Virus record (IMG/VR): IMGVR_UViG_3300044630_004416
Span: 41,440 to 105,439 of that record
Strand: one strand, 5' to 3'
Length of the DNA: 64,000 nt
From: a virus
Taxonomy: Duplodnaviria; Heunggongvirae; Uroviricota; Caudoviricetes
The notes beneath the pieces were generated by a model. The model ran no database searches. It was not told the DNA's origin and worked only from the letters and a program-made list of their open reading frames with translations. The position numbers and the translations under genes were made by a program. Below, piece by piece: positions 33,246-46,914 of this stretch (its first letter is position 1; each line of letters opens with the position of its first letter).

Positions 33246-33389
33246 TCAGCTTCCTTGGCCCCTATATCTCTTTTTCCTGCCATTTCTGCTAGAAGCAGAC
33301 AGTTTGGTGTTCTTGCTTCTTCCTTGTCGAGTTGTTTTTGGGTTTCCAGGAATATAGCTTGATTTGTTGAAACTTGGTGATTTTGCCAT
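33246..33389 (-). CDS. small highly basic protein (47 aa)
   Basis: Manual translation MAKSPSFNKSSYIPGNPKTTRQGRSKNTKLSASSRNGRKKRYRGQGS. Ends 6 nt before the terminator. More coherent than the overlapping 80-aa track ORF 33173..33415, which reads through the terminator. Confidence 0.4.
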   Translation of the reverse strand: MAKSPSFNKSSYIPGNPKTTRQGRSKNTKLSASSRNGRKKRYRGQGS

Positions 33390-33404
33390 AGTAATAAAAA
33401 ACGA

Positions 33405-33725
33405 TTAGTTTGCAAAGACGGTCGTTGGACCTGATAGTATTGTACGTGGAGAAGAGGGAGCTGTCAAGTCCCCTACATGAGCTGTCATCCTACCTTCTTT
33501 AAAAACAGTACTCACTGAGATAATCTGTCTATACAGAGGAGGACAACCAGAATCGCAACTTGGAATTCCAGGAACAGGAGTTAATACGTCTCCTAGTTTA
33601 GCAGTTGGAAGTCCATTAGTAAAAATTCTACTTGCTACTGGAGTTACAGTATTTGGTGGATATGTACAACATGGAGGTCCAAATGAAACTGAATCTGGAA
33701 ATCCTAAAGTTGCTACTTGTCTCAT
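33405..33725 (-). CDS. small Cys-rich protein, possibly PAAR-like spike tip
   Basis: 106 aa with GPPCC and CDSGCPP, plus LGDVLTPVPG and AHVGDLTAPS segments (H-x-GD then T-A-P-S). Immediately downstream of the 959-aa structural gene with overlapping stop and start. Confidence 0.35.
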   Translation of the reverse strand: MRQVATLGFPDSVSFGPPCCTYPPNTVTPVASRIFTNGLPTAKLGDVLTPVPGIPSCDSGCPPLYRQIISVSTVFKEGRMTAHVGDLTAPSSPRTILSGPTTVFAN

Positions 33726-36601
33726 GTTTCGTCTCTCTTTTTATAAGGCCAGAATTGAGATAATTTAAACCCTACTTGATAACTTGTAATTACAGAATTT
33801 ATTTCTGGTGCATTTTCAAATGGAACAGTAGTACTTTCAAAGGTATAAGCCTTTCCTGTACCAGAACCATATCCAGTAGCTGTAAATATAGTGCCTACAG
33901 CTGCATTATCAGGAGCACCAATAGATTTCCAATTGGTGGTTCCTAGTGTATGTATTATATAGTCAACACCAGGAATGAATTGCCCAGCGTCGATAAGGTT
34001 TTCAAATGTTGATGTTGTTTGATACACTCCTCTAATACAATTACTAAAAGATGTATCAGTTTTTCCTTTGTAGTAAATAATTTCTTCACCTAGGTAATAA
34101 AACACAGATTCAATATTTTCTGTAATGTCTTCTTTTCTTTTCTCAATATATTTGGGAATGATTAAATACCCAGATGAAAGAAACCCACTGGTACTATCAA
34201 CATTAATTGTTGTTGCAGTTGAAGATAGATTTGAAGTTAATGATGCATATACTGGATTATCAATAAATCCATTTCCTTTATTGAGAATTACTTCACCAAT
34301 ATAGTTACTAATTTCTTCAACTCTAAATTGAAACTTTTTACCATAATCAATTTGTTGGTTTACTCCATCATTCCATACTTGTTCTGGATATGGTCTTGCA
34401 GATAGACCATCATCCCCTGCAGTAGGAGCAACCCATGATTTAGAAACAGTTGTTGGAACCAATGGATTTAATGGATTTGTAATGTCTGCAACCGCATCAA
34501 ATGCACCAGCAGAACAAGCAATGTTTGTAATATATCCGTTAGTTCTAGTTGTAGTAATGGTATATCCATCATTGACGATGTTATCACCAGTTACTCCATT
34601 AAAAGTAACAGTTCCTTCCCATCTTGGAATTGATTTAATAACTACATCAATTTTGTTTTCACTGCTGTCTACTATTACACTGTCGTCAGTCTCAAATACT
34701 ACATCATTTAATAAGTATTCAAGTTTAGAGAATTTTGGTGGAATTCTCTTAAATTTAGTTAATAATAAATCTACTGATGATTTATTCTCACCTATAATTG
34801 TAGCTGGAACTTGAGGAATTTTAGTATTGACTGGAACAGACTCTTCAATACTTTGCATTGCCTTCATTAAATTATTAACTAATGAATTTTCTCCTCCAAT
34901 AAATTGATTGTACATTTCTTGTGGAAGTACAATTGAGGATGAAGACAAAGTATTTGAAATAGTATTGTTTAGATATTGAGATAGCTCATCAACAGAATAT
35001 GCAGATTGTGGACGTACATCAATACAATCATCCTCTACTAGAGTATTGGTGACTGTATTAATCATATTCTTTGCCATAGAAATTTCTTTGTATGGATTAT
35101 ATACTTTCGCATATGTCTGAGAAATTTCATCACCACAAACATCATCTGTTACTTTGGATACTTTTTTTCCATTTAATAGAGTTTTGTTGTGAGTAATTAT
35201 TCTATCTTCTAATTCTGTATATGAAAGATTTTTTGAGTTACTTTCACCAAGCCAATAAAGTAGCTTAGTTTTATCTACAGGTCTATTGAAGTTTGTCCAG
35301 TAAATGTTATCAATAATATAAGAAGTTTCTGTCTTTGGATTTACACAAAGACTTGTATTTGTTAATAATGTAGTACCATCATTTAATATAATACTTCCTA
35401 TAATGTAGTCTGCATCATTTTCTGGAATAATTTCCTGTTCGCAGTCTGTACTTTTATTATAGAATAGTGGAAGATATTCTAGTGTTTTTTTATCTTGTGC
35501 AAAATAAGTTCCAACTACAGCAGAACGATTTGTAATTCCTTTACCTGCATATACTTTTATACTTGCACCAGAACCAGTGGCAGTATATGTACTTGTAGTA
35601 TTAAAACTGGAACCGCTACCAGTTAATTCTGCATAACAAAGTGTAGATGCATTGACTTTATTTGTAGCTGCACTTGTAAAAACTACTGATTTAATTTTCT
35701 TACTTTTAACAGGATTTGATAATACAATTTTATTATCTGTAGAAGAAATAGATGTTACTGTAGTATCTGATTCAATACCAGTACCAACTACTCCATCACC
35801 AACTGAAATGTTTGATTTATCACCAACATAAATGTAAGAATTGGTATTCCCTGGCTTTGAATGCTTTACTACTCTTTTTCGTAAAGATTTATCTGTAATG
35901 TAGTTAATGACTCTACTTACAGTCCATCCGTTTACAGTATCACCTTCTGTAATTACAGTATTTGTAGTTGAAGTATATTTAAAGAATATTTTATTGTCAT
36001 CAGTTCCTCCATGGTAAATGTAACTACCAGTAGGAATACTTTGAATGCTGCTGTCTACTTTATCTAAAGTTAAAGTTGCAGTAACATTTTTACTATCAAC
36101 TGTGTATGTTGTAAGTGCAGTTGTTGTTGAACCACCACCTCCACCACCAGCAGGAGAAGTAGAAGTTTGAGTAGTTGCAACAAAACCACCAACTGTTCTG
36201 GTTAGATTAAATGTAGTGGGCCATTCAAAGATATGATAAAAGTATTCTTCATCATAAGAGTGATTTGCTCTACACTCTCTTTCAAATACAGGTTTTACAC
36301 CGTTACTTCCATCTGGAACGTATTCTTGGTTTGAAACGGTAATTGTATCAAATGTTACATCACCATTATCATCCTCTCCTGATGGAGTCTTAATGGTTTG
36401 TGTAATAAACTTTTCTAACTTCTGAGCATTCTGTATGAACTTGTTGGTATTACTTGCAGGGTCTATCTCGTACCAATACTTTTTAGTGTGATTAAAGCTC
36501 AGTGTTGTACTAGAAGATACTGGAGGGTCTCCACTTGTAGTGGTGTATGTATAAGTATATGTCTTTGATATTTGCTCTTTTTTTGGTCTGCAATTTCCCA
36601 T
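33722..36601 (-). CDS. large structural protein (959 aa), candidate baseplate hub/spike-associated
   Basis: Poly-Gly stretch (PAGGGGGGSTTT). C-terminal HTLGTTNWKSIGAPDNAAVGTIFTATGYGSGTG module shared with two baseplate proteins. First gene of the baseplate operon. Confidence 0.6.
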   Translation of the reverse strand: MGNCRPKKEQISKTYTYTYTTTSGDPPVSSSTTLSFNHTKKYWYEIDPASNTNKFIQNAQKLEKFITQTIKTPSGEDDNGDVTFDTITVSNQEYVPDGSNGVKPVFERECRANHSYDEEYFYHIFEWPTTFNLTRTVGGFVATTQTSTSPAGGGGGGSTTTALTTYTVDSKNVTATLTLDKVDSSIQSIPTGSYIYHGGTDDNKIFFKYTSTTNTVITEGDTVNGWTVSRVINYITDKSLRKRVVKHSKPGNTNSYIYVGDKSNISVGDGVVGTGIESDTTVTSISSTDNKIVLSNPVKSKKIKSVVFTSAATNKVNASTLCYAELTGSGSSFNTTSTYTATGSGASIKVYAGKGITNRSAVVGTYFAQDKKTLEYLPLFYNKSTDCEQEIIPENDADYIIGSIILNDGTTLLTNTSLCVNPKTETSYIIDNIYWTNFNRPVDKTKLLYWLGESNSKNLSYTELEDRIITHNKTLLNGKKVSKVTDDVCGDEISQTYAKVYNPYKEISMAKNMINTVTNTLVEDDCIDVRPQSAYSVDELSQYLNNTISNTLSSSSIVLPQEMYNQFIGGENSLVNNLMKAMQSIEESVPVNTKIPQVPATIIGENKSSVDLLLTKFKRIPPKFSKLEYLLNDVVFETDDSVIVDSSENKIDVVIKSIPRWEGTVTFNGVTGDNIVNDGYTITTTRTNGYITNIACSAGAFDAVADITNPLNPLVPTTVSKSWVAPTAGDDGLSARPYPEQVWNDGVNQQIDYGKKFQFRVEEISNYIGEVILNKGNGFIDNPVYASLTSNLSSTATTINVDSTSGFLSSGYLIIPKYIEKRKEDITENIESVFYYLGEEIIYYKGKTDTSFSNCIRGVYQTTSTFENLIDAGQFIPGVDYIIHTLGTTNWKSIGAPDNAAVGTIFTATGYGSGTGKAYTFESTTVPFENAPEINSVITSYQVGFKLSQFWPYKKRDET

Positions 36602-36658
36602 TTAAGTTAACTATAAAATTGTATGAAACGCTTAATAATTTCTCAAAAAATTGCGAAA

Positions 36659-36838
36659 TTAATCTCCTACTTTATGTATACGAATACCTGGACTATCATG
36701 ATGCTCAAAGAATTCCCACTCTAAAGTGTCTCCTTCTGCCCACTGCATCTCATCTAGTAACTCATCTGGAAAAACTAAGAAATATTCTCCAGATTTTTCA
36801 TCATATTGAACTTCTGTAGTATAAGAAAATGTTGACAT
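36659..36838 (-). CDS. small acidic protein (59 aa)
   Basis: Manual translation MSTFSYTTEVQYDEKSGEYFLVFPDELLDEMQWAEGDTLEWEFFEHHDSPGIRIHKVGD. GTAAATA motif about 20 nt upstream of the ATG. Confidence 0.4.
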   Translation of the reverse strand: MSTFSYTTEVQYDEKSGEYFLVFPDELLDEMQWAEGDTLEWEFFEHHDSPGIRIHKVGD

Positions 36839-36839
36839 A

Positions 36840-37290
36840 TGTGTATGAATATTTACAGTATATAGTAAAAAAATTTTTTTTACATTTTTTCAGAATTTTT
36901 TGAATTTTTCGGTGAAATTTTTTCCGAGAATTTTCAAAATTTCTCTGATTGTGATGTAAATGTATGAAAATTCCTCGGAATGAGTCGTTTTTGTGCTTAT
37001 TTTAGTGATTTTTTGAGTCATTTTGAGGAATTTTGTGGGCAAATGGGGGAATTTGGGGAAAACTTGGAGGGACTTGGAGGGACTTGGAGATTTTTCGGAA
37101 AATTTTTTTGGGTGATTGAGTATCTTTCGGTCGTCTTCAAAGGTTTATAGCTTAGGAGGGACCCAAACTTTTTGTACGGGGCGGGGCGGCCAACCCATAA
37201 GGGGCGCTAATGACTGCCCTCTGCTCCCATAAGGACTGCTGATGCATCAGAAGGGCTGATGAATGGGGGCCGAAGCCCCCTGAATCTCTC
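36840..37290. repeat. repeat-rich non-coding region at a compositional boundary; candidate origin or regulatory region
   Basis: At least 8 copies of GAAWTTTT (36890-37100). Three tandem ACTTGGAGGG units (37061-37090). Imperfect 20-bp direct repeat CCCATAAGGnnnGCTrATG at 37193 and 37227. Palindrome CTGATGCATCAG. Ends in hairpin GGGGGCCGAAGCCCCC (37265-37280). GC rises from about 25% to about 60% across it. No ORF. Confidence 0.55.
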
Positions 37291-37291
37291 A

Positions 37292-37459
37292 TCAGACATC
37301 CATCTCCAGAAGCTTGCCCAGAAGGGCTTCCACATCCTGGCGGGATTCAAACAACTGCCAGGGCTGGCTGCGACGGTCGGCGGCAATCAGGCCAGACATC
37401 ACCAAACGGCGAGCGATGCGAATCTCGGCGTTGGTCAGGGTCAGGGTCTTGGTGGGCAT
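37292..37459 (-). CDS. small GC-rich-island protein (55 aa)
   Basis: MPTKTLTLTNAEIRIARRLVMSGLIAADRRSQPWQLFESRQDVEALLGKLLEMDV with strongly G/C-ending codons. Preceded by the TGCTAGGATT-CTCAGTTCAAA leader. The track's 168-aa version (37292..37798) is read-through across the upstream gene. Confidence 0.45.
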   Translation of the reverse strand: MPTKTLTLTNAEIRIARRLVMSGLIAADRRSQPWQLFESRQDVEALLGKLLEMDV

Positions 37460-37532
37460 TGGTCGGTTCCTTTGAACTGAGAGAATCCTAGCATGGATGG
37501 GGGAGCCCCGAAGGGCTCCCGTTAACATTTGT

Positions 37533-37844
37533 TCACACAGGCGTGTTGCGGTCCTGGCTCCAGTTACGCAGCCTGCGGTTGCTGGCCTTGCTGTAAACTC
37601 GGTCGCCAATGGTACGGTCCCCCACGGTGATGGCGCTGCGGCCTGCAGCATCAGCGGCGGCCTGCAGGGCTTGGCGACCCAGCTTGCGCTCAGAGGGAAG
37701 GGCGACCTCAGAGGTGGCCAGGTCAAACAGCCACTGAGCACGGTGGCGGCCCACGATGGTGGGTTCCTTGATGGTTCGCTTGGCGAGGGCCACGGCAATG
37801 ATGGTGGGAACAGCGGTGCGGGTCAGACGGTCGGAGCGGGTCAT
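37533..37844 (-). CDS. hypothetical protein of GC-rich island (103 aa)
   Basis: High-GC codon usage (acc, cgc, ctg, gcc). Preceded by GC hairpins and a TATAAT box. Confidence 0.5.
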   Translation of the reverse strand: MTRSDRLTRTAVPTIIAVALAKRTIKEPTIVGRHRAQWLFDLATSEVALPSERKLGRQALQAAADAAGRSAITVGDRTIGDRVYSKASNRRLRNWSQDRNTPV

Positions 37845-37958
37845 GGTCTCAGGTAGGTTGTGGGGGCTTCTCTCGCCCCCGTGTTCATATTATAGGGTAT
37901 CGGGGGGAGGCTGGCGATGCCCCAGCCCCGACTTGTAACAAACTGAAATAATTATATT

Positions 37959-38627
37959 TTAGGCGACAATCTCATTGACTGTTTTTTTAGCATTACCGTG
38001 AGCAGGGAAAGCAATAATGAAGTCCCTGTCTGCTTTAGCACAAAGGCCACAAGTTGCACAAGTTACATTCTCATGAATAGTTGCAGGACAAGTGATAACT
38101 TTACGACCAGATTCTGTTTTATAGAATCGTTCGGTTTTATCAGACTTGACAACAGCCACTGCAGGAATGTTGTGCTCAGTCATGATAGCATCAGCCACCT
38201 CAACATCCTCAGTGGATGCATTGATTGTGAAGCCTTTGTTGTTAGCTTCCTTGATGACTTGCAGGTTGTGGTTGTTAAGAACGTGGTGGGTATAAGTGTA
38301 ACCTTTGCGGCCTTTGTTTGCATCAGCCAGTGCAGATACCATGGGAGCATTAATGTCACCCAGGATATGTGGCAGGTCGCCAGATACATTGTGCCGCCAG
38401 AGTTGGCCACGCTGAAGCTTGCGAATTGCGTTCACAAACTCCTGGAAATTAACACCCCTTTCCTGTTCAGTTACCTTGCGCCAGTGAATAGCTTGGGGGC
38501 CAGACTTGGCGTAGCAACCTTTATCGTAAAAGGGGCAAGTGCTGGGGCAGGTCTCACGGCTGGAGGTGCTGGTAGGGATGGGGCCAGTCTTAGCGTTGCT
38601 GGAGACCTGGGTGAGAGCGAAGTTCAT
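37959..38627 (-). CDS. Cys-rich hypothetical protein (222 aa), possible metal-binding
   Basis: N-terminal CPSTCPFYDKGC and C-terminal CPATIHENVTCATCGLC clusters. Moderately GC-rich codons. Preceded by the same TGCTAGGATT-CTCAGTTCAAA leader as the 55-aa gene. Confidence 0.55.
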   Translation of the reverse strand: MNFALTQVSSNAKTGPIPTSTSSRETCPSTCPFYDKGCYAKSGPQAIHWRKVTEQERGVNFQEFVNAIRKLQRGQLWRHNVSGDLPHILGDINAPMVSALADANKGRKGYTYTHHVLNNHNLQVIKEANNKGFTINASTEDVEVADAIMTEHNIPAVAVVKSDKTERFYKTESGRKVITCPATIHENVTCATCGLCAKADRDFIIAFPAHGNAKKTVNEIVA

Positions 38628-38693
38628 GACTTGGGTTTGAACTGAGGTAATCCTAGCAGGTGGTGGGGGCTGGAGAGCCCCCTGTTACAAAGC

Positions 38694-38933
38694 TTAACCT
38701 TTGGCCAGCCAGTCGGAGACTGACATAATCCAGCCCTCGCTGTGCCAGGTGCGGAATCGGTCAGTCTTAAACTGTTCCCACTGTTCGGCAGTCAGCTGGT
38801 GGCCTTCCACCATAACGGGCTCGGTGCTGGGCTTGGGCTTAGCCTGTCCCAGGTTAGCACGGAACCGCTCGGCGGCAGCATCAGCCTGGCTCAGCTCAGG
38901 GCTCAGGCCAGGGAGGTGCTCGGTGTTGAACAT
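38694..38933 (-). CDS. hypothetical protein of GC-rich island (79 aa)
   Basis: GC-rich ORF preceded by a TTGTAACA-hairpin-TGTTGTAGGATT leader. Confidence 0.5.
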   Translation of the reverse strand: MFNTEHLPGLSPELSQADAAAERFRANLGQAKPKPSTEPVMVEGHQLTAEQWEQFKTDRFRTWHSEGWIMSVSDWLAKG

Positions 38934-39009
38934 TGGTCGGTTGCGACTGCCCCAGAATCCTACAACATGGGGGCTGCCACCTGGCCAGCCCTGTTACAAT
39001 TTGAAATAT

Positions 39010-39201
39010 TTACATCTCCAGCTGCCAATCTTGGTCCTTTGTAACATTAACCCAGAAGAAGTTCCTGCCATTCATACTACGCAGGAAGACTTTATCACCT
39101 TTGGATTGTTCAACGATGCAATGTTCACAAGATTCCATTAGATTGGCGAATCTGTTTTTAGCTTTCTTTGAGATAGGCTTGACAGAAACAATTGTTTCCA
39201 T
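39010..39201 (-). CDS. hypothetical small protein (63 aa)
   Basis: ORF with C-x2-C (CEHC). Preceded by the G7/C7 hairpin element. Confidence 0.45.
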   Translation of the reverse strand: METIVSVKPISKKAKNRFANLMESCEHCIVEQSKGDKVFLRSMNGRNFFWVNVTKDQDWQLEM

Positions 39202-39321
39202 TAGAGAAACTTCCTTTCAAACTTACGAAACAACATTAGCATGAACAGCAGGGCTAGAACTCCTGACATTTACAATTTGTAATGTTTGTTTGTGGGGGGA
39301 TTGTCTCCCCCCTTGATTGTA

Positions 39322-39585
39322 TCAGATGGCAGCCTGCTTGAGTTCTTCAGTGCGGCGAGCATCTGCAATGGTAGCACCTAGGCTAACCTTCATGAGTTGT
39401 TCATCATTAGTGAGCAAATCACTCAGGAATTGTGCATAATCTGCACTTGCAGCGAAAGCATAAGCCTTATCAGGATTCGACTGATAAGTGATAACAACAT
39501 CCGTACCTTCTACAGTTACACTGTGAATGGCACTGGATTGGTCAACAGTGAATTGGCGATGAACAGGATTGATAGCAACAGTCAT
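39322..39585 (-). CDS. hypothetical small protein (87 aa), weak KTSC-like resemblance
   Basis: ORF preceded by TTGACA-17-TACATT within a hairpin cassette. Confidence 0.45.
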   Translation of the reverse strand: MTVAINPVHRQFTVDQSSAIHSVTVEGTDVVITYQSNPDKAYAFAASADYAQFLSDLLTNDEQLMKVSLGATIADARRTEELKQAAI

Positions 39586-39795
39586 GATGTTTCAGTGAAT
39601 GAACTTTAATAATGTACAGGATGGGGGCTGAGTTGTCAACCCCCTTGTGACACTATCAGAATTGGATTTCTTCTAGTGTGGGCTCCATAGATTCATCCAC
39701 AGAATCTACAGAAAGCATGTCCAGAATGGTGAGAATCTCATCACCAGTCTGACCTTTGCGAAGCATCGAAATCAGCAGTTCTTTAGACATAATAA

Positions 39796-39927
39796 TCAAT
39801 AATCAATGTTAGAGTTAATATATTCTGCAAAGAATTGTTCATTGTTGTCATTCTCTGCAGGAATCAGCATGTCATCTTCCCAGTCGAAGACTTCAGCTTC
39901 AAGTTCAGCAAAATCGAAGGTGTCCAT
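39796..39927 (-). CDS. small acidic protein (43 aa)
   Basis: MDTFDFAELEAEVFDWEDDMLIPAENDNNEQFFAEYINSNIDY. The track's longer version (39796..39981) starts at a TTG inside the promoter element (TTGACACCAGCCCC read as MTPAP). Real start taken as the internal ATG. Confidence 0.4.
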   Translation of the reverse strand: MDTFDFAELEAEVFDWEDDMLIPAENDNNEQFFAEYINSNIDY

Positions 39928-39965
39928 GGGTTGTTCAGTAGTGAACGAGTTCAGTATGGCATGGG

Positions 39966-40009
39966 TGGGGGCTGGTGTCAACCCCTGATTGATTAGAGTT
40001 GCTTATCAT
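39966..40009 (-). promoter_or_regulatory. PeSL-like cassette copy A: GC hairpin overlapping a sigma70-like promoter
   Basis: Minus strand reads GGGGTTGACACCAGCCCCCACCCATGCCATACT (TTGACA-17-CATACT). About 43 bp nearly identical to copy B. Confidence 0.5.
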
Positions 40010-40121
40010 TGTCCATGGTATACTGTGAACAATGCTTTCACAAACTTATCTTCATCTAAGTAGTCTAACTGTTCGTCAGTTAAATTACTTAATAATTGAA
40101 GAATTGTTGAGATTGTTGGAG

Positions 40122-40328
40122 TCATGACAGAACATGAATATAATCAATAGAGTTAATGCACCAACCATAAGCACAGGTGATTTCCTCTACTAAATCATCT
40201 TCATCATCTGCCTCCCAAACTGTATTTGTGACCTCATCATGAAGGTCTGTTTGTTCTTCAAGTGTGGGAACATCGTCTTCATCATCCATAGTGAAATCGA
40301 AGCGAATGTTGGTGACTTGATACAACAT
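40122..40328 (-). CDS. small very acidic protein (68 aa)
   Basis: MLYQVTNIRFDFTMDDEDDVPTLEEQTDLHDEVTNTVWEADDEDDLVEE..., D/E-rich. Preceded by cassette copy B. Confidence 0.5.
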   Translation of the reverse strand: MLYQVTNIRFDFTMDDEDDVPTLEEQTDLHDEVTNTVWEADDEDDLVEEITCAYGWCINSIDYIHVLS

Positions 40329-40370
40329 TTGAGTGGTTCAGAATTGAACAATGATAATTTAACTCTAAAA

Positions 40371-40413
40371 GGGGCTGGTGTCAACCCCCTGACTGATTAG
40401 TGTTACTTATCAA
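40371..40413 (-). promoter_or_regulatory. PeSL-like cassette copy B
   Basis: GGGGCTGGTGTCAACCCCCTGACTGATTAGTGTTACTTATCA. Minus strand TTGACA-17-TAAATT. Confidence 0.5.
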
Positions 40414-40595
40414 TCCTCCAGCAGCTCAGGATTGTATTCACGAACCTCTGTAATCAGTTCTTCATCAGAATAAGATTCAAGATTCCCCACCAATGTATCA
40501 TAAGCAAGGGAACACACTGCATCCATATCCAGTCCATCTAAGATTTGCTGAGCATAATCAGCAATCAGAGAATCACGGTCAAAAGTGTTAGTCAT
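40410..40595 (-). CDS. small acidic protein (61 aa)
   Basis: MTNTFDRDSLIADYAQQILDGLDMDAVCSLAYDTLVGNLESYSDEELITEVREYNPELLED. Track start 40622 is a TTG; ATG at 40595 chosen instead. Confidence 0.45.
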   Translation of the reverse strand: MTNTFDRDSLIADYAQQILDGLDMDAVCSLAYDTLVGNLESYSDEELITEVREYNPELLED

Positions 40596-40653
40596 GAGTG
40601 GTTCAGAAGTGAACAGTAGCAACTTAACCCAGATTCAGAGCCCTGTCAACCAT

Positions 40654-40857
40654 TCATTCATAAGTGTTACTAATCTGATTGATAGTCTTTTCTAATGTAT
40701 TCAGTTCTTGTTCATTTAGTCCAAGAACATATTCTTCAATAATATCTTCTATAAGTTTATAGTTATTATTATACAATTCATTCGTGAGTGATTCAATCAT
40801 CTCATCTTGTTTCATGGATTTTGTGTTAAAGTATTGAAGAATTTCTGAGTAGTTCAT
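40654..40857 (-). CDS. small acidic protein (67 aa)
   Basis: ORF translationally coupled (ATGA) to the upstream 56-aa gene. Confidence 0.5.
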   Translation of the reverse strand: MNYSEILQYFNTKSMKQDEMIESLTNELYNNNYKLIEDIIEEYVLGLNEQELNTLEKTINQISNTYE

Positions 40858-41024
40858 TTCTTAATTACCAGGGCACCATACTTGTTGAGTTTACCTGCAC
40901 ATGGTTTGTTATCATACAGGCCAAAGTAATACTTACCAATACTAATACCAAACTGTTCATCACCTGATTTAGCCCTAGTATTAGCTCCAATGTAGAGGAA
41001 TCGGGAATCAATTGAGAATTTCAT
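40854..41024 (-). CDS. small protein (56 aa)
   Basis: Manual translation MKFSIDSRFLYIGANTRAKSGDEQFGISIGKYYFGLYDNKPCAGKLNKYGALVIKK. Sits 23 nt downstream of a near-consensus sigma70 promoter. Confidence 0.5.
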   Translation of the reverse strand: MKFSIDSRFLYIGANTRAKSGDEQFGISIGKYYFGLYDNKPCAGKLNKYGALVIKK

Positions 41025-41047
41025 GGGTTCAATGTGTGAACAGAGTC

Positions 41048-41077
41048 ACTATAGGGGGTTTTCGGAGGGTTGTCAAG
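41048..41077 (-). promoter_or_regulatory. sigma70-type promoter P1 (TTGACA-17-TATAGT)
   Basis: Minus strand reads CTTGACAACCCTCCGAAAACCCCCTATAGTGACTCTGT. Confidence 0.65.
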
Positions 41078-41156
41078 AGGGTTTGAATAAGTATATCTTA
41101 TATGGTTAATAATCTCTAGATATACTTAATAATTATTTGTTACCCTCCACAGAGTC

Positions 41157-41185
41157 ATTATACACATATCTGGGTGTGTTGTCAA
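41157..41185 (-). promoter_or_regulatory. sigma70-type promoter P2 (TTGACA-17-TATAAT, perfect consensus)
   Basis: Minus strand reads CTTGACAACACACCCAGATATGTGTATAATGACTCTGT. Shares TATARTGACTCTGT with P1. Direct repeats TATATGGTTAATAAT twice and ATATACTTAATAATT three times nearby. Confidence 0.65.
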
Positions 41186-41360
41186 GTGTATATGGTATAT
41201 GGTTAATAATTTGTAATATGGAGTTTTCCACAGGTTTTTCCACAGGGCTGTGGAAAACTATCAAAGGGGCTCGGAGTGATTAGGAGTGCTTATATTAGTA
41301 TTCCTTATGAGTGGCCTCGGAATGATTTGGAATACTTATGAGTTTTTTGGGGCTGGGGGC

Positions 41361-41389
41361 TTGACAAATTTCGGAAGTCATGGTATACT
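41361..41389 (+). promoter_or_regulatory. plus-strand sigma70-type promoter (TTGACA-17-TATACT), divergent from P1/P2
   Basis: CTTGACAAATTTCGGAAGTCATGGTATACTG on the plus strand. Perfect inverted repeat TTTTCCACAGGGCTGTGGAAAA lies 110 bp upstream. No convincing plus-strand ORF downstream. Confidence 0.55.
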
Positions 41390-41613
41390 GCGGGCCAAGA
41401 CTGCTGCAGCCCCGTACATTTCAGATACTTTCTCTGACACCATCGGACACACACACATACAAATACAGTATATACTTAATAATTCTCTCTCTACACATTA
41501 TATACTTAATAATTTCTCTTATTCCTTCTCTCTATACATAACACTCAACTATATTTTTTATTACATTTAATGAATGTTAATAATTTATACTAATTTTAAC
41601 ATATCTTTCCGCA

Positions 41614-41814
41614 TCACATATACTTTATCATTGAATCTGCTATTTGCCAACAATATACTGATACTAATTCATCAGCATCTACTTCTGCATCTTTTGCTGC
41701 TCTCTGAAAGTTTGTTTCTAATACATTTGATGCTAACTGTGCTAATGCTATCTTAGCAAATTCAATTCTTAATTCTTGCCTTGTTTCTTCTGTTAAATTC
41801 ATGTGAAGGTACAA
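41614..41814 (-). CDS. hypothetical small protein
   Basis: 66-aa ORF. Likely real start at the internal MNLTEETRQ. Confidence 0.4.
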   Translation of the reverse strand: MYLHMNLTEETRQELRIEFAKIALAQLASNVLETNFQRAAKDAEVDADELVSVYCWQIADSMIKYM

Positions 41815-42071
41815 TCCCGTTCAAATTAAGTTTAATGGTTAAAATGTAGTGTTTTTTGATTGGTTTTATTGGGCTTTGAGCTTGTTTTTTAGATGATTCA
41901 ATGCTTGCTTACGAGCTTTGAGCTTACCTTTACAGATACCTTTGGTTTTGTGTGGTTTGTTTGAGTGATGTTGCCAATTTGGTGTGGTCACTTGTCTTGT
42001 GTTTGAGTTGTACTCATTCTATGAGTAAAACCACCCCGATGTGGAGTGGTTTGTGTCAGTTATTTATCTGG

Positions 42072-42341
42072 TCAGAATAACTCTTTTATCATTTGCTTCA
42101 GATGCCACCATGTAGACTTTGGCTTATCCTCTTCGATTGGTTCTTCTCTTTGTTCAAAATCTTTTGCATTACGACCACAAAGAGATTCATCTTTTCTAAC
42201 CTCAATACAAATCATGTCAATTGCATATACAGTACCTTTGATGTAATCAAGTTCCTCAACATAATGTTTTTCGCAAACATGAAAAAGGCCAGGAATCAAA
42301 CGACAATGCTTACACTCTTGACAAGCAGGAATTGTGGTCAT
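42072..42341 (-). CDS. zinc-ribbon-like small protein
   Basis: 89 aa with CQECKHC...C...C cysteine pattern. Confidence 0.5.
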   Translation of the reverse strand: MTTIPACQECKHCRLIPGLFHVCEKHYVEELDYIKGTVYAIDMICIEVRKDESLCGRNAKDFEQREEPIEEDKPKSTWWHLKQMIKELF

Positions 42342-42570
42342 GTGATTTGAGTTTACTTAGTTTTGGTATAAGTGTGAAGAGTACCGAAGATTTTGATAGT
42401 CTTGGGTTTGGGTTGTTGGGAATAGGGTTTTTTGCTCATCGTGATACCTCGATTGTTTCTCGTAGTGCTTTTTGTGTTTCTCGGTGATTGTGATAATTCA
42501 TTATAATATCCATTACACAATAACCAAAGGCAAATGCTGCCATAATTGTTGTTAACATAGTTTTAATACC

Positions 42571-42987
42571 TCAGGGAGTAATCCAATCGTAACCAGAAGG
42601 TTCTACAACACTCTCAAATCCATCATATTCATCAATACGATAAGGACCAGAGACTTCTTCAATAGCAAGTTTAGCACACATTCCGTTTGCTTTGTCACCC
42701 AGTTCTTCTACAACTTGAACCAAAATAGGGTCGTGTCGAGCAACATTATAGTCACTCCAAGTTTGTTCAGAATACTTTTTATTGTAAGCAATTCGTTCTT
42801 CAATTGGTGTAGAATGCCAGGGTTCTGGTTTTTCAGGTCGTTCTTCGGGCGGAACCAACCAAACATTGAATCCCCAATTTGCATCTTCAATCCAAACTTG
42901 TTTGCCTTGAAGTTCCCAGTAACGTTGACACGCTTCACGGGACAGACCGAACCCACCGTAGCAGGCATTATAAACTACTTTTGTCAT
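42571..42987 (-). CDS. hypothetical protein (138 aa)
   Basis: ORF with balanced composition. Confidence 0.5.
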   Translation of the reverse strand: MTKVVYNACYGGFGLSREACQRYWELQGKQVWIEDANWGFNVWLVPPEERPEKPEPWHSTPIEERIAYNKKYSEQTWSDYNVARHDPILVQVVEELGDKANGMCAKLAIEEVSGPYRIDEYDGFESVVEPSGYDWITP

Positions 42988-42989
42988 AA

Positions 42990-43187
42990 TCAGTTATAAG
43001 TACAGAGTTGAGTGATGCGACCGTATTGAATACCTTCAGACCATTTGCCTCCAGCAGCAATACAGGATTGTTTGTTGGGAACAATAGAGTCGCCATTAGC
43101 AACACCCACGCCAATAGCAGCAAGAATACCAAGAATCACAAAAACAATCATCAGTTCAATGATAGTATAACCGTTGGGTTTAATCAC
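42990..43187 (-). CDS. type IV pilin-like (prepilin N-terminal cleavage/methylation motif) small protein
   Basis: MIKPNGYTIIELMIVFVILGILAAIGV matches the class III signal peptide G-[FY]-T-[LI]-I-E-L-[ML]-I-V followed by a hydrophobic helix. 65 aa. Two Cys in the C-terminal part. Confidence 0.6.
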   Translation of the reverse strand: MIKPNGYTIIELMIVFVILGILAAIGVGVANGDSIVPNKQSCIAAGGKWSEGIQYGRITQLCTYN

Positions 43188-43465
43188 AGTGCTGCAACCT
43201 CCTCCATAATGTTTTCTACATCTTGCTCATCACGATGACCGAGTACATCATCAGTGACTGGTGTATCATAACAAAGGTCATACTTATCTGCATCACCTTT
43301 GATGACTGCTACTTCATACAATCCTTCCGCAAATCCATAAGAACCAGGGAATCGTACTACACTCACTCCGTATCCATTTGGAAAGAAATGAAGTGCTTGT
43401 ACACCATCCTCAAACTTAGTAGGATTGAAGTTCAAATCAGTGAATTTCATAGTGAATACCTGCAT
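43184..43465 (-). CDS. hypothetical protein (93 aa)
   Basis: ORF overlapping the pilin-like gene start (ATGA). Confidence 0.45.
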   Translation of the reverse strand: MQVFTMKFTDLNFNPTKFEDGVQALHFFPNGYGVSVVRFPGSYGFAEGLYEVAVIKGDADKYDLCYDTPVTDDVLGHRDEQDVENIMEEVAAL

Positions 43466-43595
43466 TGTGGGTTGGTGGGTTGTTGTTTACAAAGTAAATC
43501 GTAAGATTCTATAAGTTTTTTGTCTCTTTCAATGAGTACAACATTCCATGCAATAATGATAGCAAATGCACAGAAACCAACTGCTAGATACTTTT

Positions 43596-43772
43596 TCATG
43601 CGTTGTAACCTTCAGATTTCAGAATAGCACGGCGAGCTTCATATGCCTGATATTCAGTAGCAAACTCAGCAATCTTTTGAAAATCATCTCGCCAGTACAA
43701 TCCCCAGCGAGTTGTACCATAAACTTGAACAATGCGAATCGGATTGTCGATGCCAAGAGGATAAGGTTTCAT
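43596..43772 (-). CDS. small protein (58 aa)
   Basis: Manual translation MKPYPLGIDNPIRIVQVYGTTRWGLYWRDDFQKIAEFATEYQAYEARRAILKSEGYNA. Below the track cut-off. Confidence 0.4.
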   Translation of the reverse strand: MKPYPLGIDNPIRIVQVYGTTRWGLYWRDDFQKIAEFATEYQAYEARRAILKSEGYNA

Positions 43773-44023
43773 GCTTCAATAATGCAGAAGGAGGCACAGA
43801 ACTTACGAACCCACTGAAGAGTTTGATAGTAGTTCCTGGGATTGGACATTACCATGCTAGCATTCTTTTGTGGATTGTGAGCAATAGCAACATATTGGTT
43901 GTCATCGACTTCTTCAATCCACATTTGATTCACATTACCCTCTTGCCAATCCCAACGTGATGTGGTGTAATGATACACTTCACGGGGCTTGCGGTTGGAG
44001 GTGAAAGTGAGAATGTCATTCAT
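43769..44023 (-). CDS. hypothetical protein (84 aa)
   Basis: ORF 28 nt downstream of promoter TTGACA-17-TAATAT. Confidence 0.5.
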   Translation of the reverse strand: MNDILTFTSNRKPREVYHYTTSRWDWQEGNVNQMWIEEVDDNQYVAIAHNPQKNASMVMSNPRNYYQTLQWVRKFCASFCIIEA

Positions 44024-44050
44024 GGGTGGTGTTCCCTTGATTACCTTTGT

Positions 44051-44079
44051 ATATTAGCCCACATGAGGGGGCATGTCAA
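44051..44079 (-). promoter_or_regulatory. sigma70-type promoter with embedded GC hairpin (PeSL-like)
   Basis: Minus strand reads GGTTGACATGCCCCCTCATGTGGGCTAATATACA (TTGACA-17-TAATAT). Confidence 0.55.
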
Positions 44080-44239
44080 CCTCTGACTCATTAGCTTTTT
44101 TAATCTTTGCGGAACGTTTCCGCATTTCATACTCATGGTTCCGTGTAAATGCGTAAAGAATCACTACAAGGGCACCAGCCAGTCCTGCAACAGCAGCAAT
44201 GGCGTTAAGGTCAGTGGGAAAGGTGGTGGTTTCAATCAT
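44054..44239 (-). CDS. small membrane protein
   Basis: 61 aa with hydrophobic segment AIAAVAGLAGALVVILYAF. Confidence 0.4.
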   Translation of the reverse strand: MIETTTFPTDLNAIAAVAGLAGALVVILYAFTRNHEYEMRKRSAKIKKANESEVDMPPHVG

Positions 44240-44528
44240 TGTGAATTTCCTCTAGATGGTCAAGACAAAGTGTAACATAATTTGGTTCACGTTCAATCAA
44301 CTCTCGATACTCTGCATAGATGGCATCAGCAATACGAAAGTTCTTGTGCATTGTTTTGTGTGTTTTGGCACGAATTGCACGTTGATTGAACTTCTCCATT
44401 TGTTGGAGAGCATTAGTCTCTGAGAGATAAATTGAATAATCAGTTTCTGTCATCATTACTTGGGTCTCCTTTTCCTTGGAGTGATTGAGCAAGAAGTTCA
44501 GCATACTTCTCAAGGTACGCCGTATCAT
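44232..44528 (-). CDS. hypothetical protein (98 aa)
   Basis: ORF in the operon. Confidence 0.45.
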   Translation of the reverse strand: MIRRTLRSMLNFLLNHSKEKETQVMMTETDYSIYLSETNALQQMEKFNQRAIRAKTHKTMHKNFRIADAIYAEYRELIEREPNYVTLCLDHLEEIHND

Positions 44529-44594
44529 AAGCTGCTAGGTGGTTACTTGTCAACTCTTTGTGCATGTTGTTGAGATTGTTCCAGTCTTCTCTGT

Positions 44595-45209
44595 TCATAG
44601 TTCTAGGTCAACGTATTCTAATTCACCCAAACCGATGTACTCAACACCTTGATATACAGTATGGTGATTGACATGCCAATGACCATGAATGAATAAATCT
44701 GGTTTGTGTATCTCTAGTATATTATCAAGAAATTGACGAGTTACAGATTTATCGTCATATTTCGTCATATTACACTTAGAGCATACTATGTATGTTAGGC
44801 TTTCTGGCATTTCGTGTGCCACTATCACAGATGGTTTAAGTTTCTCATATACATCGCACAGAATGAGAAACTCTTTGTATGATAGTTCTTCATTTATCCA
44901 CCAATTCAATCCTTCTGTTCGATACTGTGCATCAATAGACTTTGCACCACCAATACAGAAGATATTGTCATGTATCATTGTGCCATCAGGTATCCAGAAT
45001 GGATGCTTTTTACATACACTTGGATTGTCATGATTGCCACGAATGAACTTGTGGTCTCCTTTTTTCATGTGGTCATATGGTGGATTGGAATGACCAGAGA
45101 ATCCTACACCGAAATCACCAACTTGAATAGATGTATCGCATTCATTGATGATTTTCTTGTATCTTTTCCAATTACCATGAACATCACCAATGAAGCGAAT
45201 ATTTTTCAT
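44595..45209 (-). CDS. calcineurin-like metallophosphoesterase (Ser/Thr phosphatase family)
   Basis: Motifs GDVHG, GDFG, GNHD and GHWH in canonical order. 204 aa. Confidence 0.8.
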   Translation of the reverse strand: MKNIRFIGDVHGNWKRYKKIINECDTSIQVGDFGVGFSGHSNPPYDHMKKGDHKFIRGNHDNPSVCKKHPFWIPDGTMIHDNIFCIGGAKSIDAQYRTEGLNWWINEELSYKEFLILCDVYEKLKPSVIVAHEMPESLTYIVCSKCNMTKYDDKSVTRQFLDNILEIHKPDLFIHGHWHVNHHTVYQGVEYIGLGELEYVDLEL

Positions 45210-45532
45210 TTTTTAAGCCATTTGTAGATTAGATAGATGGCACCAATGACAAGTGCAGCAAGAATCACATATCGGAATGCCCAGATTGCCAACAGGCCAA
45301 GGACCACAGCAATTCCAGTCCAACTAATATCACCACCAGAACTAAAACTTGAGCTGTCTGAGGTTTCATAAGATGTTTTGCTGATTGGATTGCAAAATTT
45401 AACTTCTTTTGCTCCATACATCGACTTGACTTGTGCAATAGCATCTTCACGCCAAGGTCCAGGAGTTTCAATCTCAACATTCTGAAGAACATTAGATTGG
45501 GTGAGAATCAGTGCTTTCCAATAGTGTGCCAT
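45206..45532 (-). CDS. membrane-anchored hypothetical protein
   Basis: 108 aa with C-terminal transmembrane segments. Confidence 0.5.
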   Translation of the reverse strand: MAHYWKALILTQSNVLQNVEIETPGPWREDAIAQVKSMYGAKEVKFCNPISKTSYETSDSSSFSSGGDISWTGIAVVLGLLAIWAFRYVILAALVIGAIYLIYKWLKK

Positions 45533-45533
45533 G

Positions 45534-45710
45534 TTAGTGATTCACTCGATGGATGATACAACGCTTGAACTCTTGCCATTCAGTATCACTAAAATTATCG
45601 CTAGCATAAGGGATGCCAACATCGGCAGCACATTGCCTTGCAATACTTTCAGGAACAGGAGTCGATAGGAAATCATACTGAACAACTGAGGCGAGAAGAA
45701 ATGCAATCAT
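45534..45710 (-). CDS. small protein (58 aa)
   Basis: Manual translation MIAFLLASVVQYDFLSTPVPESIARQCAADVGIPYASDNFSDTEWQEFKRCIIHRVNH. ATGA overlap with the upstream gene. Confidence 0.35.
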   Translation of the reverse strand: MIAFLLASVVQYDFLSTPVPESIARQCAADVGIPYASDNFSDTEWQEFKRCIIHRVNH

Positions 45711-45931
45711 GATTCAGGTTGAAAACGATTGGACCAGAGCAACCCAAAGGTTTCTTTGAGGTTGTCCAGCATAGTGTAGCGTTGAATCAATGTGTTGTCA
45801 AGTGGTAGGTCATGCAGTCCATCATCATAGGGTGCCAGTATCTGGATTGACTCCAGAGCATGTGTGATGATGTCCATGATAAGCTCATGTTGAGACTCAG
45901 TGAGAGTCACTGTGATGTCACCTTGGTTCAT
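45707..45931 (-). CDS. hypothetical small protein
   Basis: 74-aa ORF. Confidence 0.45.
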   Translation of the reverse strand: MNQGDITVTLTESQHELIMDIITHALESIQILAPYDDGLHDLPLDNTLIQRYTMLDNLKETFGLLWSNRFQPES

Positions 45932-45933
45932 AA

Positions 45934-46206
45934 TCAGTTCTTAGTGTTAACAGTTACAAGTCCACCAAATGCAAGACGGAGACCAATCAGAATGCCCCAA
46001 ACTTGCCAGAGGGAGAGTACAGTATAATTGAATAGATTTACAAGAATCCAGTGCAGTACCCATGCAACTGGAATCATTAGAATTGCACCAATGGCAACTG
46101 CAACAATTACAATTCCAAGAATTGCAACACCAGCACCAATGATTTCTGCCCAGGTGTAATTTTTACTTGGCATAATGCGACGAAAGCGACGGGATGAGTT
46201 AGTCAT
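45934..46206 (-). CDS. small integral membrane protein
   Basis: 90 aa with two hydrophobic helices. Confidence 0.5.
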   Translation of the reverse strand: MTNSSRRFRRIMPSKNYTWAEIIGAGVAILGIVIVAVAIGAILMIPVAWVLHWILVNLFNYTVLSLWQVWGILIGLRLAFGGLVTVNTKN

Positions 46207-46212: not shown

Positions 46213-46587
46213 TTAGGAAGGAATTTCACAAATTGCAGGAGTATAATCATAGCAAATCCATTCATTATCTTTAGTGAAAATATAGCTATACTCTTCACTA
46301 TTATGAATATACTCTGTAATATCTTCATCAATACGAGGAGAACAATTATCACCACGCATTCTATAAGTCAGAACAATAGGATTACTTAGTTTTCTATTGT
46401 TCCAATCAGTAGATGATTCAAGGCAAGAAATGTCTCCTCTACGAATCAATGCGTGAACTTTTGCACGAGTATTATATTTAGATTTTAGCTTTTTGCCCAA
46501 CCATTCAGGATAACCATCCCAATGATGATATACTGATTTCACAGAACCATTTTTGAGTTCAATGCCAATGCGAGAGCGAGTTGCCAT
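46213..46587 (-). CDS. hypothetical protein (124 aa)
   Basis: ORF. Confidence 0.5.
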   Translation of the reverse strand: MATRSRIGIELKNGSVKSVYHHWDGYPEWLGKKLKSKYNTRAKVHALIRRGDISCLESSTDWNNRKLSNPIVLTYRMRGDNCSPRIDEDITEYIHNSEEYSYIFTKDNEWICYDYTPAICEIPS

Positions 46588-46662
46588 TTCAATAGGGGGT
46601 GAATGTGTTGGGCGAGTTGTCTCTCACCCATGAACGTAATATAAGATGGATGGTCTGGGATG

Positions 46663-46914
46663 TCAATACCATTGTGCCAGTCGTTCAGCCGCACGTTCCC
46701 TGGCTGCTGCACGACGGTCTGCCTTGACTTGCTCAGCATACTGGACAACGATGCCTTCCAGATTCTTGGGCATGTAGGCTCCCAGACCAGTGACAGGGGT
46801 GATAGTCATGCCCCTGCCGCTTCCAGGGCCGCCTCCAACGGCTACAGAGCCCTTTACGCCATCTGCACCGTTGCCGAGGTTGCCAATTGCTTTGTGTTGA
46901 TTGTGGAGTGCCAT
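46663..46914 (-). CDS. Gly-rich small protein in a local GC-rich patch (83 aa)
   Basis: GNLGNGADGVKGSVAVGGGPGSGRG. About 55% GC with G/C-ending codons. Directly downstream of the helicase gene. Confidence 0.45.
   Translation of the reverse strand: MALHNQHKAIGNLGNGADGVKGSVAVGGGPGSGRGMTITPVTGLGAYMPKNLEGIVVQYAEQVKADRRAAARERAAERLAQWY

Follow-up and report, generated by a model that had tools for sequence, protein, structure and literature searches.

Promoter-hairpin cassettes resembling promoter-early stem-loops between the small genes of a predicted T4-like cyanomyovirus

Promoter-early stem-loops (PeSLs) of the T4-like coliphages RB49 and phi1 combine a near-consensus sigma70 promoter with a polyG-loop-polyC stem-loop in five registers, including overlap with the -35 hexamer, and these elements, which have an AT-rich upstream part and a Shine-Dalgarno sequence, lie beside ORFans in hyperplastic regions (PMC2839356). 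Their promoter activity, terminator activity and mini-circle formation were shown experimentally (Arbiol et al., 2010; PMC2839356), and PeSLs act as recombination points (PMC2839356, PMC4122927). The PeSLs of T4/PST and KVP40/nt-1 also consist of a stem-loop and a sigma70-like promoter, of lineage-specific sequence (Comeau et al., 2014; PMC4122927). PeSLs are on record from T4-like phages infecting enterobacteria and vibrios, while the sole comment on cyanophages found in the literature concerns a low PeSL density in S-PM2 (PMC4503421). Investigation of a 64,000-nt stretch of the virus record IMGVR_UViG_3300044630_004416 (hereafter the window) revealed short cassettes of hairpin and promoter between the small open reading frames (ORFs) of its minus strand, which carries all sizeable ORFs and is the coding strand. 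We consider it probable that the region at 37.2-41.2 kb is a hyperplastic early-gene region with PeSL-like promoter-hairpin cassettes, with outliers such as the site at 44079 (Table 1).

Regarding frequency, the window has 11 inverted runs of the form G4+...C4+ where 1-kb block shuffles predict 1.0, and nine of the 11 lie within 37265-40389. Perfect promoters of the form TTGACA-N17-TAnnnT number 12 against 1.9 ± 1.35 expected, a count reached in 0 of 100 shuffles; 11 of them are on the coding strand, spanning 33.4-55.0 kb, each no more than about 100 nt 5' of an ORF start. The original prediction, made from the letters of the window, had named an equal density of the motif inside coding regions as the sign of a compositional artefact; ten of the 11 hairpins are intergenic although ~94% of the window is coding. 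The five minus-strand promoters that it had read, TTGACA-17 nt-CATACT (39981), TAAATT (40384), TACATT (39639), TAAGTT (40649) and TAATAT (44079), are exact, and the -35 and -10 hexamers are invariant in orthologous alignments, in which loop and spacer vary.

Fusion of hairpin and promoter is rarer than had been proposed, since instead of at least ten such sites a perfect TTGACA was detected in three hairpins only (39623-39644, 39968-39985 and 40369-40390). These type-1 sites fit the published definition of PeSLs (promoter, G/C stem-loop including -35 overlap, AT-rich upstream part) and bear out the likeness that had been suggested. The hairpin does not form the spacer, as had been thought; the 5' arm consists of the G-run and TTG(A) of the -35, the loop holds the remainder of the -35, and the 3' arm (CAGCCCC) covers the first 8-9 nt of the spacer. 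In the fold GGGGGUUG pairs with CAGCCCCC via one U.G wobble around a 4-nt loop, a longer pairing than first described. The cassette at 40326-40412 has a minimum free energy (MFE) of -24.7 kcal/mol (z = -3.5), with UUUU directly after the hairpin, and those at 39925-40008 and 39583-39658 have z = -2.2 and z = -4.0; the orthologous alignment of the latter (A3) keeps GGGGTTGACA, the C-run and TA..T, with a varying loop. The two stretches of about 43 nt at 39966-40009 and 40371-40413 are, as stated before, nearly identical (4 differences, about 91% identity). At two other sites listed earlier as hairpin cassettes, 40628-40680 (z = -0.8) and 44051-44079 (z = +1.06), there is a promoter but the fold has no significant hairpin; the former lies in the cassette 40593-40656, which has no G/C hairpin. 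Folding gave no significant hairpin at promoters 41076 (41022-41095, z = -0.3), 41185 and 33467 either. In the cassette between X8 and X9 the hairpin 39294-39312 has GAGACA in its loop, not a perfect -35; its orthologs differ in sequence and keep the pairing (GGGGAG-GCAA-CTCCCC in two relatives, L002 and L009, and GGGGGGTGCGATTCCCCCC in L008).

Further parts of the cassettes recur. Cassettes 40384 and 39981 share an upstream block, TGATAAGYAACWCTAATCARTCA, placed between stop codon and G-run; cassette 40649 has a related one. The block TGATAAGYAACWCTAATCARTCA is also found 5' of promoters in the cultured phage S-CREM1 (family Kyanoviridae), the nearest cultured relative inspected. In four cassettes the distance from the -10 to the start of a palindrome, GTTCA-N4-5-TGAAC, is exactly 6 nt, which puts the palindrome at about +1; it occurs five times in the window against 0.5 expected, with four of the five in cassettes, and in 11 of 77 leaders of relatives, and is a feature of a subfamily, not a universal part. 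In relatives the enrichment of 5'-leader hairpins is weak, with 20% against 13% having a fold of -4 kcal/mol or below. Leaders are short and A/C-rich (…CCACTC-ATG, …AACCC-ATG), with a median of 26 nt from -10 to ATG and a start codon present, and no Shine-Dalgarno (GGAG-type) motif was detected in the cassette leaders, plausibly a host-specific difference of picocyanobacteria.

A second form, type 2, is found in the GC-rich island. The GC content of the window is ~30-40%, but 53-56% at 37-39 kb; in the island at 37150-39000 (53-56%, compared with about 35%) each gene of the array has its own boundaries, and relatives have different, longer GC-rich gene arrays at this position. Its hairpins (37265-37280, 37501-37520, 37862-37880, 37900-37931, 38665-38682 and 38971-38991) lie 5' of -10-like boxes (TGCTAGGAT, TAGGAT, TATAAT), and no recognisable -35 was detected at 16-18 nt from these boxes, the best being TCGCCA. 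In order, a type-2 cassette has a stop codon, TTGTAACA, the hairpin and a -10-like box, in some cases followed by another hairpin in the leader, with TAATTATTTCA..TTGTAACA 5' of the hairpin. The TTGTAACA/TTGTTACA box stands directly 5' of the island hairpins and 27-30 nt 5' of the -10-like box, an arrangement that recurs in many relatives; the TTGTWACA box is not enriched across the window (18 against 11.9 expected), and no NtcA-type GTA-N8-TAC sites were seen by eye in the type-2 cassettes. Cassette 37842-37961 (MFE -39.2 kcal/mol, z = -3.5) has a two-hairpin layout also present in L009, L014, L019 and L022, and cassette 37458-37535 (z = -2.2), with a UUCG tetraloop on the sense strand, belongs to repeat family D17 and is 91% identical to 38636-38658. 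Cassette 38931-39012 has a hairpin, yet its whole-region z is 0.05. The type-2 form might be a separate promoter class. Of the ten cassette-flanked ORFs, four belong to PHROG families of unknown function and six are without a family match.

Related IMG/VR and metagenomic DNA stretches (given L-numbers) were compared with the window. The type-1 core of the 39968-39985 site, the 18-mer GGGGTTGACACCAGCCCC, is present in exact form in 12 stretches of IMG/VR contig DNA, adjoining different genes and pairing with different -10 boxes; four of the 12, which come from three contigs, share synteny and 70-85% identity with the window. Another 80 loci were obtained with ORF X9 (39010-39201) as query. For 74 unique intergenic promoters from relatives, folded from -14 to +26 around the -35, the mean MFE was -12.4 kcal/mol, against -7.0 kcal/mol with flanks shuffled, -5.4 kcal/mol for TTGACN outside intergenic DNA and -8.9 ± 0.33 kcal/mol with 5' flanks swapped among promoters, where 0 of 500 permutations reached -12.4. 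Folding energy was used because a metric of at least 4 pairs enclosing the -35 gave no discrimination (0.86 observed, 0.83 shuffled) and was dropped. Stems vary among cassettes (GGGGG/CCCCC, GGGGTTG/CAACCCC, GGGCCAGC/GCTGGCCC, GGGGCAAGC/GCTTGCCCC, GGGTCAGG/CCTGACCC), with TTGAC staying in or next to the loop.

A covariance model built from the X7/X8 orthologs gave 50 matches, all on the coding strand; in their alignment 88% of cells are paired, six of nine pairs change on both sides, and the covariation score, 0.192, exceeds that of shuffles (0.103; 0 of 500) and is far above the values with partners slid, figures that are somewhat inflated by the fitting of the alignment to the model. At the first T of the -35, a U.G wobble is more frequent in this alignment than any other pair. 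S-CREM1 has the same architecture, including a canonical terminator-promoter fusion, GGGGTCTTGACAGACCCCTTTTTTTGTGCCATACT. Regarding the strand on which the hairpins act, 142 intergenic tetraloop hairpins had GNRA loops in the sense orientation 38 times against 1 for the complement and UNCG loops 14 times against 3 (together 52 against 4); sense-strand loops in the window are UUCG at 37501-37520 and 37265-37280 and GAAA at 49800-49819. This bias points to a role of the intergenic hairpins in sense RNA; attenuation or 3'-end protection would be the likeliest roles.

Comparison of gene content among relatives, suggested with the earlier idea of cassette-wise gene gain, revealed changes that agree with that idea. 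Between 43184 and 37150 gene order and content vary at cassette junctions and tight pairs are kept, as seen among L002, L005, L008, L009, L014, L018, L020 and L022. The window order X1 X2 X3 X4 X5 X6 X7 X8 X9 corresponds to X2 n60 X3 X1 X6 ... in L002, X2 n60 X1 X6 ... in L009, X2 X1 n92 X6 ... in L008 and X1 X2 n58 ... in L005, and L020 has a duplicated f4-X6-X7 block; in L020 and L021, at about 3700-5600, this duplication is in tandem with promoter-hairpin cassettes at the block ends. On the 3' side of X9 the series of GC-rich genes changes from relative to relative, with hairpin cassettes bounding each single gene. Adjacency was broken at 5% of tight junctions, the neighbour being kept in 95% of comparisons, and at 26% of hairpin-bearing intergenic regions (Fisher p = 8e-10).

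Two cassettes are chimeric. That between n60 and X1 in L009 joins the 5' part of the L002 n60/X3 cassette to the 3' part of the L002 X3/X1 cassette (alignment A1), with the crossover within TCAGGGGGTTGAC, and that between X9 and the DUF7227 gene in L014 joins the 5' part of the window cassette X9/79-aa to the 3' part of the window cassette 79-aa/222-aa (alignment A4), with the crossover at a shared TAGGATT. The 79-aa gene (38694-38933) is present in the window and L019 and missing in L014 and L015 and, since the L014 junction cassette is chimeric, is regarded as a single-gene indel. The X4-X5 unit (40006-40328), bounded by the ~43-nt direct repeats 40371-40413 and 39966-40009, is missing from L002, L005, L008, L009 and L013-L023. 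The DNA of X4 shares 80-84% identity with that of S-RIM8, S-RIM50 and S-SRM01, marine phages of Synechococcus, while its surroundings have no such identity, which suggests a recent horizontal movement of X4 as a single small gene.

Several observations weigh against the reading of these sites as PeSL-like shuffling cassettes, besides the inflation of the covariation figures. Promoter activity and its timing are predicted from sequence, and promoter status is weaker for the type-2 sites, which have no recognisable -35. Four clear window promoters (40649, 41076, 41185 and 44079) are without a hairpin, which is thus dispensable for the promoter. A T-rich tail (5 or more T within 8 nt) follows one of 49 strong -35-overlapping hairpins, so that the cassette hairpins do not have the make-up of canonical intrinsic terminators; a terminator consensus scan matched 39294-39312 and 37859-37883 on the non-coding strand only. 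For the -35-overlapping hairpins the difference between sense and antisense folding energy was a trend (p = 0.078), for which reason the tetraloop asymmetry was used instead and a DNA-level role is possible. Hairpin-bearing intergenic regions were not preferred breakpoints, being broken in 26% of comparisons against 42% for other intergenic regions; with 5% at tight junctions, breakpoints map to intergenic DNA and not to hairpins specifically, and the link with shuffling may be one with intergenic DNA in general.

These breakpoint frequencies, the promoters without a hairpin and the lack of a BLAST match for cassette DNA in cultured phages would all suit ordinary, independent promoters and 3' hairpins that resemble each other through use of the same RNA polymerase and local duplication, with shuffling by illegitimate or other recombination taking place anywhere in intergenic DNA and no particular function of the cassettes in it. 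We regard this as unlikely, because it accounts poorly for crossovers inside a shared 7-13-nt core in the two chimeric cassettes, for 43-nt direct repeats around the window-specific X4-X5 unit, for an 18-mer core that recurs unchanged beside unrelated genes in the 12 IMG/VR contig stretches and for a tandem block duplication bounded by cassettes in L020.

The inverted repeat around the -35 could alternatively act as DNA, either as the operator of a dimeric regulator or as a supercoiling-dependent cruciform that conceals or uncovers the -35; in either case it would tune promoter use rather than act as RNA. The centring of the repeat on the -35, the near absence of a U-tract (1/49), the energy difference between strands that is not significant in the -35 subset (p = 0.078) and the +1 palindrome GTTCA-N4-5-TGAAC, which is constant in sequence like a protein-binding site, agree with such a role. 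It appears quite improbable in view of stem sequences that vary widely with pairing kept, which fits structure and not a sequence-specific operator, the U.G pair that is commonest at one stem position and for which the opposite strand would have mismatched C and A, the 52 to 4 excess of sense-strand GNRA/UNCG loops, and the many hairpins that stand right after stop codons with no promoter inside. A chance product of G-runs and C-runs in an AT-rich genome is hardly credible: the GC-rich island raises the local chance of such runs and cassette 38931-39012 folds no better than shuffles (z = 0.05), but composition-keeping block shuffles gave 1.0 hairpins where 11 were observed and 1.9 promoters where there are 12, the covariance-model matches are confined to the coding strand and 80 relatives have kept the motif. 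The shuffling controls and this conservation refute the artefact reading.

Under the PeSL-like reading each small ORF or tight ORF pair would be its own transcription unit, with short conserved cassettes as junctions that run, 5' to 3' on the coding strand, from the upstream stop codon through an AT-rich block, a GC-rich RNA hairpin, a host sigma70/SigA-type promoter and a leader to the next ATG; the leader would be short and without a Shine-Dalgarno sequence, in many cases opening with a palindrome or small hairpin near +1, and in the compact type-1 form hairpin and promoter would be fused. Host RNA polymerase would drive early transcription from the cassette promoter, and the hairpin would form in the sense RNA of the upstream unit as an attenuator or 3'-end protective structure, insulating neighbouring units. 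Because 20-45 nt are nearly identical among cassettes, homologous recombination between them is proposed to delete, insert, duplicate and reorder whole gene units, each event restoring a working junction, which would be the PeSL mechanism proposed for RB49/phi1; the termination or stabilising function and the recombination pathway are what we infer.

More tentatively, and with considerable doubt, the bases of one 20-nt element may specify both an RNA hairpin and the -35 of the promoter that follows, with the small genes as plug-in units in an integrase-free, integron-like exchange of accessory genes among cyanophages. If so, up to about a dozen single-gene units would stand in an array, some of them GC-rich genes in an AT-rich genome, and turn over via shared cores. 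Dense cassettes of PeSL design, conserved in a widespread uncultured cyanomyovirus lineage and found in cultured S-CREM1, would carry the PeSL mechanism over to phages of major aquatic primary producers. The hyperplastic regions of such phages hold variable accessory genes, for which the conserved core GGGGGTTGACA..CCCCC could serve as a handle to delimit or amplify gene cassettes in metagenomes, and, thanks to the chimeric junctions, the recombination model can be tested on reads that already exist.

Table 1. Coordinates of genes, cassettes and promoters in the window.
Feature	Position	Strand	Elements and remarks
X1	40854-41024	minus	
X2	40654-40857	minus	
X3	40410-40595	minus	
X4	40122-40328	minus	68 aa, PHROG 2460 (function unknown)
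X5	40006-40125	minus	39 aa
X6	39796-39927	minus	
X7	39656-39790	minus	
X8	39322-39585	minus	
X9	39010-39201	minus	
GC-island gene, 79-aa ORF	38694-38933	minus	
GC-island gene, 222-aa DUF7227/GP88-like ORF	37959-38627	minus	
GC-island gene, 103-aa ORF	37533-37844	minus	
GC-island gene, 56-aa ORF	37292-37460	minus	
Type-1 cassette X3/X4	40326-40412	minus	double stop and block TGATAAGTAACACTAATCAGTCA 40390-40412; hairpin 40369-40390; -35 TTGACA 40379-40384; -10 TAAATT 40356-40361; palindrome GTTCAATTCTGAAC 40336-40349; ATG 40326-40328
Type-1 cassette X5/X6	39925-40008	minus	upstream block 39986-40008; hairpin GGGGUUG-ACAC-CAGCCCC 39968-39985; -35 39976-39981; -10 CATACT 39953-39958; palindrome GTTCACTACTGAAC 39933-39946
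Type-1 cassette X7/X8	39583-39658	minus	hairpin GGGGGUUGA-CAAC-UCAGCCCCC 39623-39644; -35 39634-39639; -10 TACATT 39611-39616; weak palindrome 39590-39604
Cassette X8/X9	39199-39324	minus	hairpin GGGGGGA-GACAA-UCCCCCC 39294-39312 right after stop codon; extended -10-like TGCTAATGT 39233-39241; GTTTGAAAGGAAG 39210-39222
Type-2 cassette X9/79-aa ORF	38931-39012	minus	box TTGTAACA 38992-38999; hairpin GGGCTG..CAGCCC 38971-38991; -10-like TAGGAT 38957-38962
Type-2 cassette 79-aa ORF/222-aa DUF7227 ORF	38625-38696	minus	TTGTAACA 38683-38690; hairpin GGGGGCU-CUCC-AGCCCCC 38665-38682; extended -10 TGCTAGGAT 38650-38658
Type-2 cassette DUF7227 ORF/103-aa ORF	37842-37961	minus	TTGTTACA 37934-37941; compound hairpin 37900-37931, degenerate -35 TCGCCA in loop; -10 TATAAT 37889-37894
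Second hairpin of cassette 37842-37961	37862-37880	minus	5' leader, GGGGGC..GCCCCC
Type-2 cassette 103-aa ORF/56-aa ORF	37458-37535	minus	hairpin GGGAGCCC-UUCG-GGGCUCCC 37501-37520; extended -10 TGCTAGGAT 37485-37493; GTTCAAAGGAAC 37466-37477
Last island hairpin	37265-37280	minus	GGGGGC-UUCG-GCCCCC just after 56-aa ORF stop; no promoter downstream
Promoter cassette X2/X3, no hairpin	40593-40656	minus	-35 40644-40649; -10 TAAGTT 40621-40626; palindrome GTTCACTTCTGAAC 40601-40614
Promoter P2 5' of X1, no hairpin	41022-41095	minus	-35 41071-41076; -10 TATAGT 41048-41053; palindrome GTTCACACATTGAAC 41027-41041; conserved in L005
Promoter P1	41157-41185	minus	perfect consensus TTGACA-17-TATAAT, 109 nt 5' of P2; partial duplicate of P2 (repeat family D2); conserved in L005 at 923
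Promoter	44051-44079	minus	TTGACA-17-TAATAT; overlaps 3' end of ORF 44054-44239; 5' of 84-aa ORF 43769-44023; ortholog in L008 at 6906
Promoter	33439-33467	minus	TTGACA-17-TACAAT; weak AGGG..CCCT flank only; MFE fold without hairpin
Promoter-like	45773-45801	minus	TTGACA-17-TACACT; within ORF 45707-45931; TTGACA and TAnnnT kept in L002, L005, L008
Promoter	46638-46666	minus	TTGACA-17-TATATT; 5' of ORF 46213-46587; L005 has TTGACA-17-TAGATT there
Promoter	48187-48215	minus	TTGACA-17-TATGGT; just 5' of likely true helicase start
Promoter	54968-54996	minus	TTGACA-17-TATATT; 65 nt 5' of RNA ligase ORF 53876-54931; conserved in L005 at 11147

The source of the window is taken to be an uncultured T4-like cyanomyovirus, because its genes are on the minus strand, the helicase at 46924-48222 has 56-58% identity to helicases of Synechococcus and Prochlorococcus myoviruses (BLAST), with 58% for Synechococcus myoviruses, two ORFs match RNA-ligase families (PHROG, Pfam) including the T4 Rnl1 family, a megablast of 37000-45000 against cultured phages gave zero matches, and copies are metagenomic. 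BLAST matches of the long helicase ORF start only at residue 18-20. One further ORF matches a metallophosphoesterase family. DNA identical to the window was found in four metagenomic data sets, with source data including ENA ERZ27272049 and ERZ27272090, SRR27430036 and JGI 3300034102, and no strain-level variation was detected among the near-identical window copies from the four samples, the assembled copies being 100% identical. An 84-nt cassette searched by BLAST against cultured phages gave chance matches only. No tRNA or tmRNA was detected in the window, and an Rfam 15 scan of 32500-46000 with E up to 1 gave no credible RNA family match.

Regarding other features, the ORF-list entry 37292-37798 is overcalled, the likely start of the 56-aa gene being the ATG at 37460, and short imperfect repeats (GGGACTTGGAG three times, AATTTTG variants) lie at 36900-37110 between the region of a 959-aa ORF and the island. 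Two very large minus-strand ORFs of the AT-rich structural part, 12390-18659 (2089 aa) and 20457-30584 (3375 aa), are presumably fibre-like. The only perfect promoter on the non-coding strand, TTGACA-17-TATACT at 41361-41389 (plus), has TG before the -10 and is enclosed as a whole by the 7-bp inverted repeat GGGGCTG...CAGCCCC; it faces away from genes into non-coding DNA and could drive a putative antisense or small RNA, with no Rfam match. The non-coding gap of 590 nt at 41025-41613 also holds, at 41222-41267 (plus), the sequence TTTTCCACAGGTTTTTCCACAGGGCTGTGGAAAAC, a direct and inverted repeat of TTTTCCACAG; two contigs that are distant elsewhere, L003 and L010, match this 46-nt stretch at 91-93% identity, its inverted repeat is found in an intergenic region of L005 and two large intergenic regions of S-CREM1, and its appearance is that of a conserved site for protein binding or of an element for replication or regulation. 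In the same gap the AT-rich repeat …TATATGGTTAATAAT… / ATATACTTAATAATT (family D4) has three copies (41091-41118, 41188-41215 and 41491-41518), and ATTATTAAC-like strings recur in intergenic regions of relatives. Two near-identical regions of ~95 nt 5' of small ORFs, 59091-59185 and 61765-61860 (minus; …CTTGAAGAACTGGCACA..GGGCATCC…GATGCCTTATAAT…), in which a 6-bp hairpin abuts TATAAT with no -35 at 17 nt, have a weak match to L012 and appear to be a second cassette family.

Comparison with known systems shows that the cassette hairpins share with Rho-independent terminators a GC-rich stem-loop directly after the stop codon and sense-strand GNRA/UNCG loops, but a U-tract almost never follows them, the only case in the window being UUUU after 40369-40390; true Rho-independent terminators in the window are at 49800-49819 and 33215-33231. 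Like integron cassettes (attC), the region is an array of single small ORFs, each bounded by a foldable imperfect inverted repeat, with order and content varying among relatives; unlike them, the cassettes here would have their own promoters and the junctions fit homologous exchange in a shared core, not site-specific cleavage, and no integrase or attI was identified here, where no systematic search was made. With the PeSLs of T4/PST and KVP40/nt-1 they have in common a high density in hyperplastic regions and an association with ORF insertions, deletions, replacements and displacements, whereas the stem-loops of those phages (AGNA-loop-TCNT or A3-4G3-loop-C3T3-4) stand just 5' of the promoter and those here are of G5/C5 type and embrace the -35.

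The PeSLs of RB49/phi1 differ from the cassettes described here, which belong to a Kyanoviridae-like phage with a presumed cyanobacterial host, have neither a Shine-Dalgarno sequence nor a U-tract, carry in many cases a palindrome or hairpin at about +1 and a specific block, TGATAAGCAACACTAATCA, and include a second form that has no clear -35. For RB49/phi1, terminator activity, promoter activity and mini-circles are experimental findings, while promoter function is predicted from sequence for the present cassettes. Shared by both are a near-consensus TTGACA-N17-TAnnnT promoter, a polyG-loop-polyC stem-loop able to overlap the -35, an AT-rich part 5' of the -35, a position between small genes of unknown function in hyperplastic regions, and chimeric elements at indel junctions.

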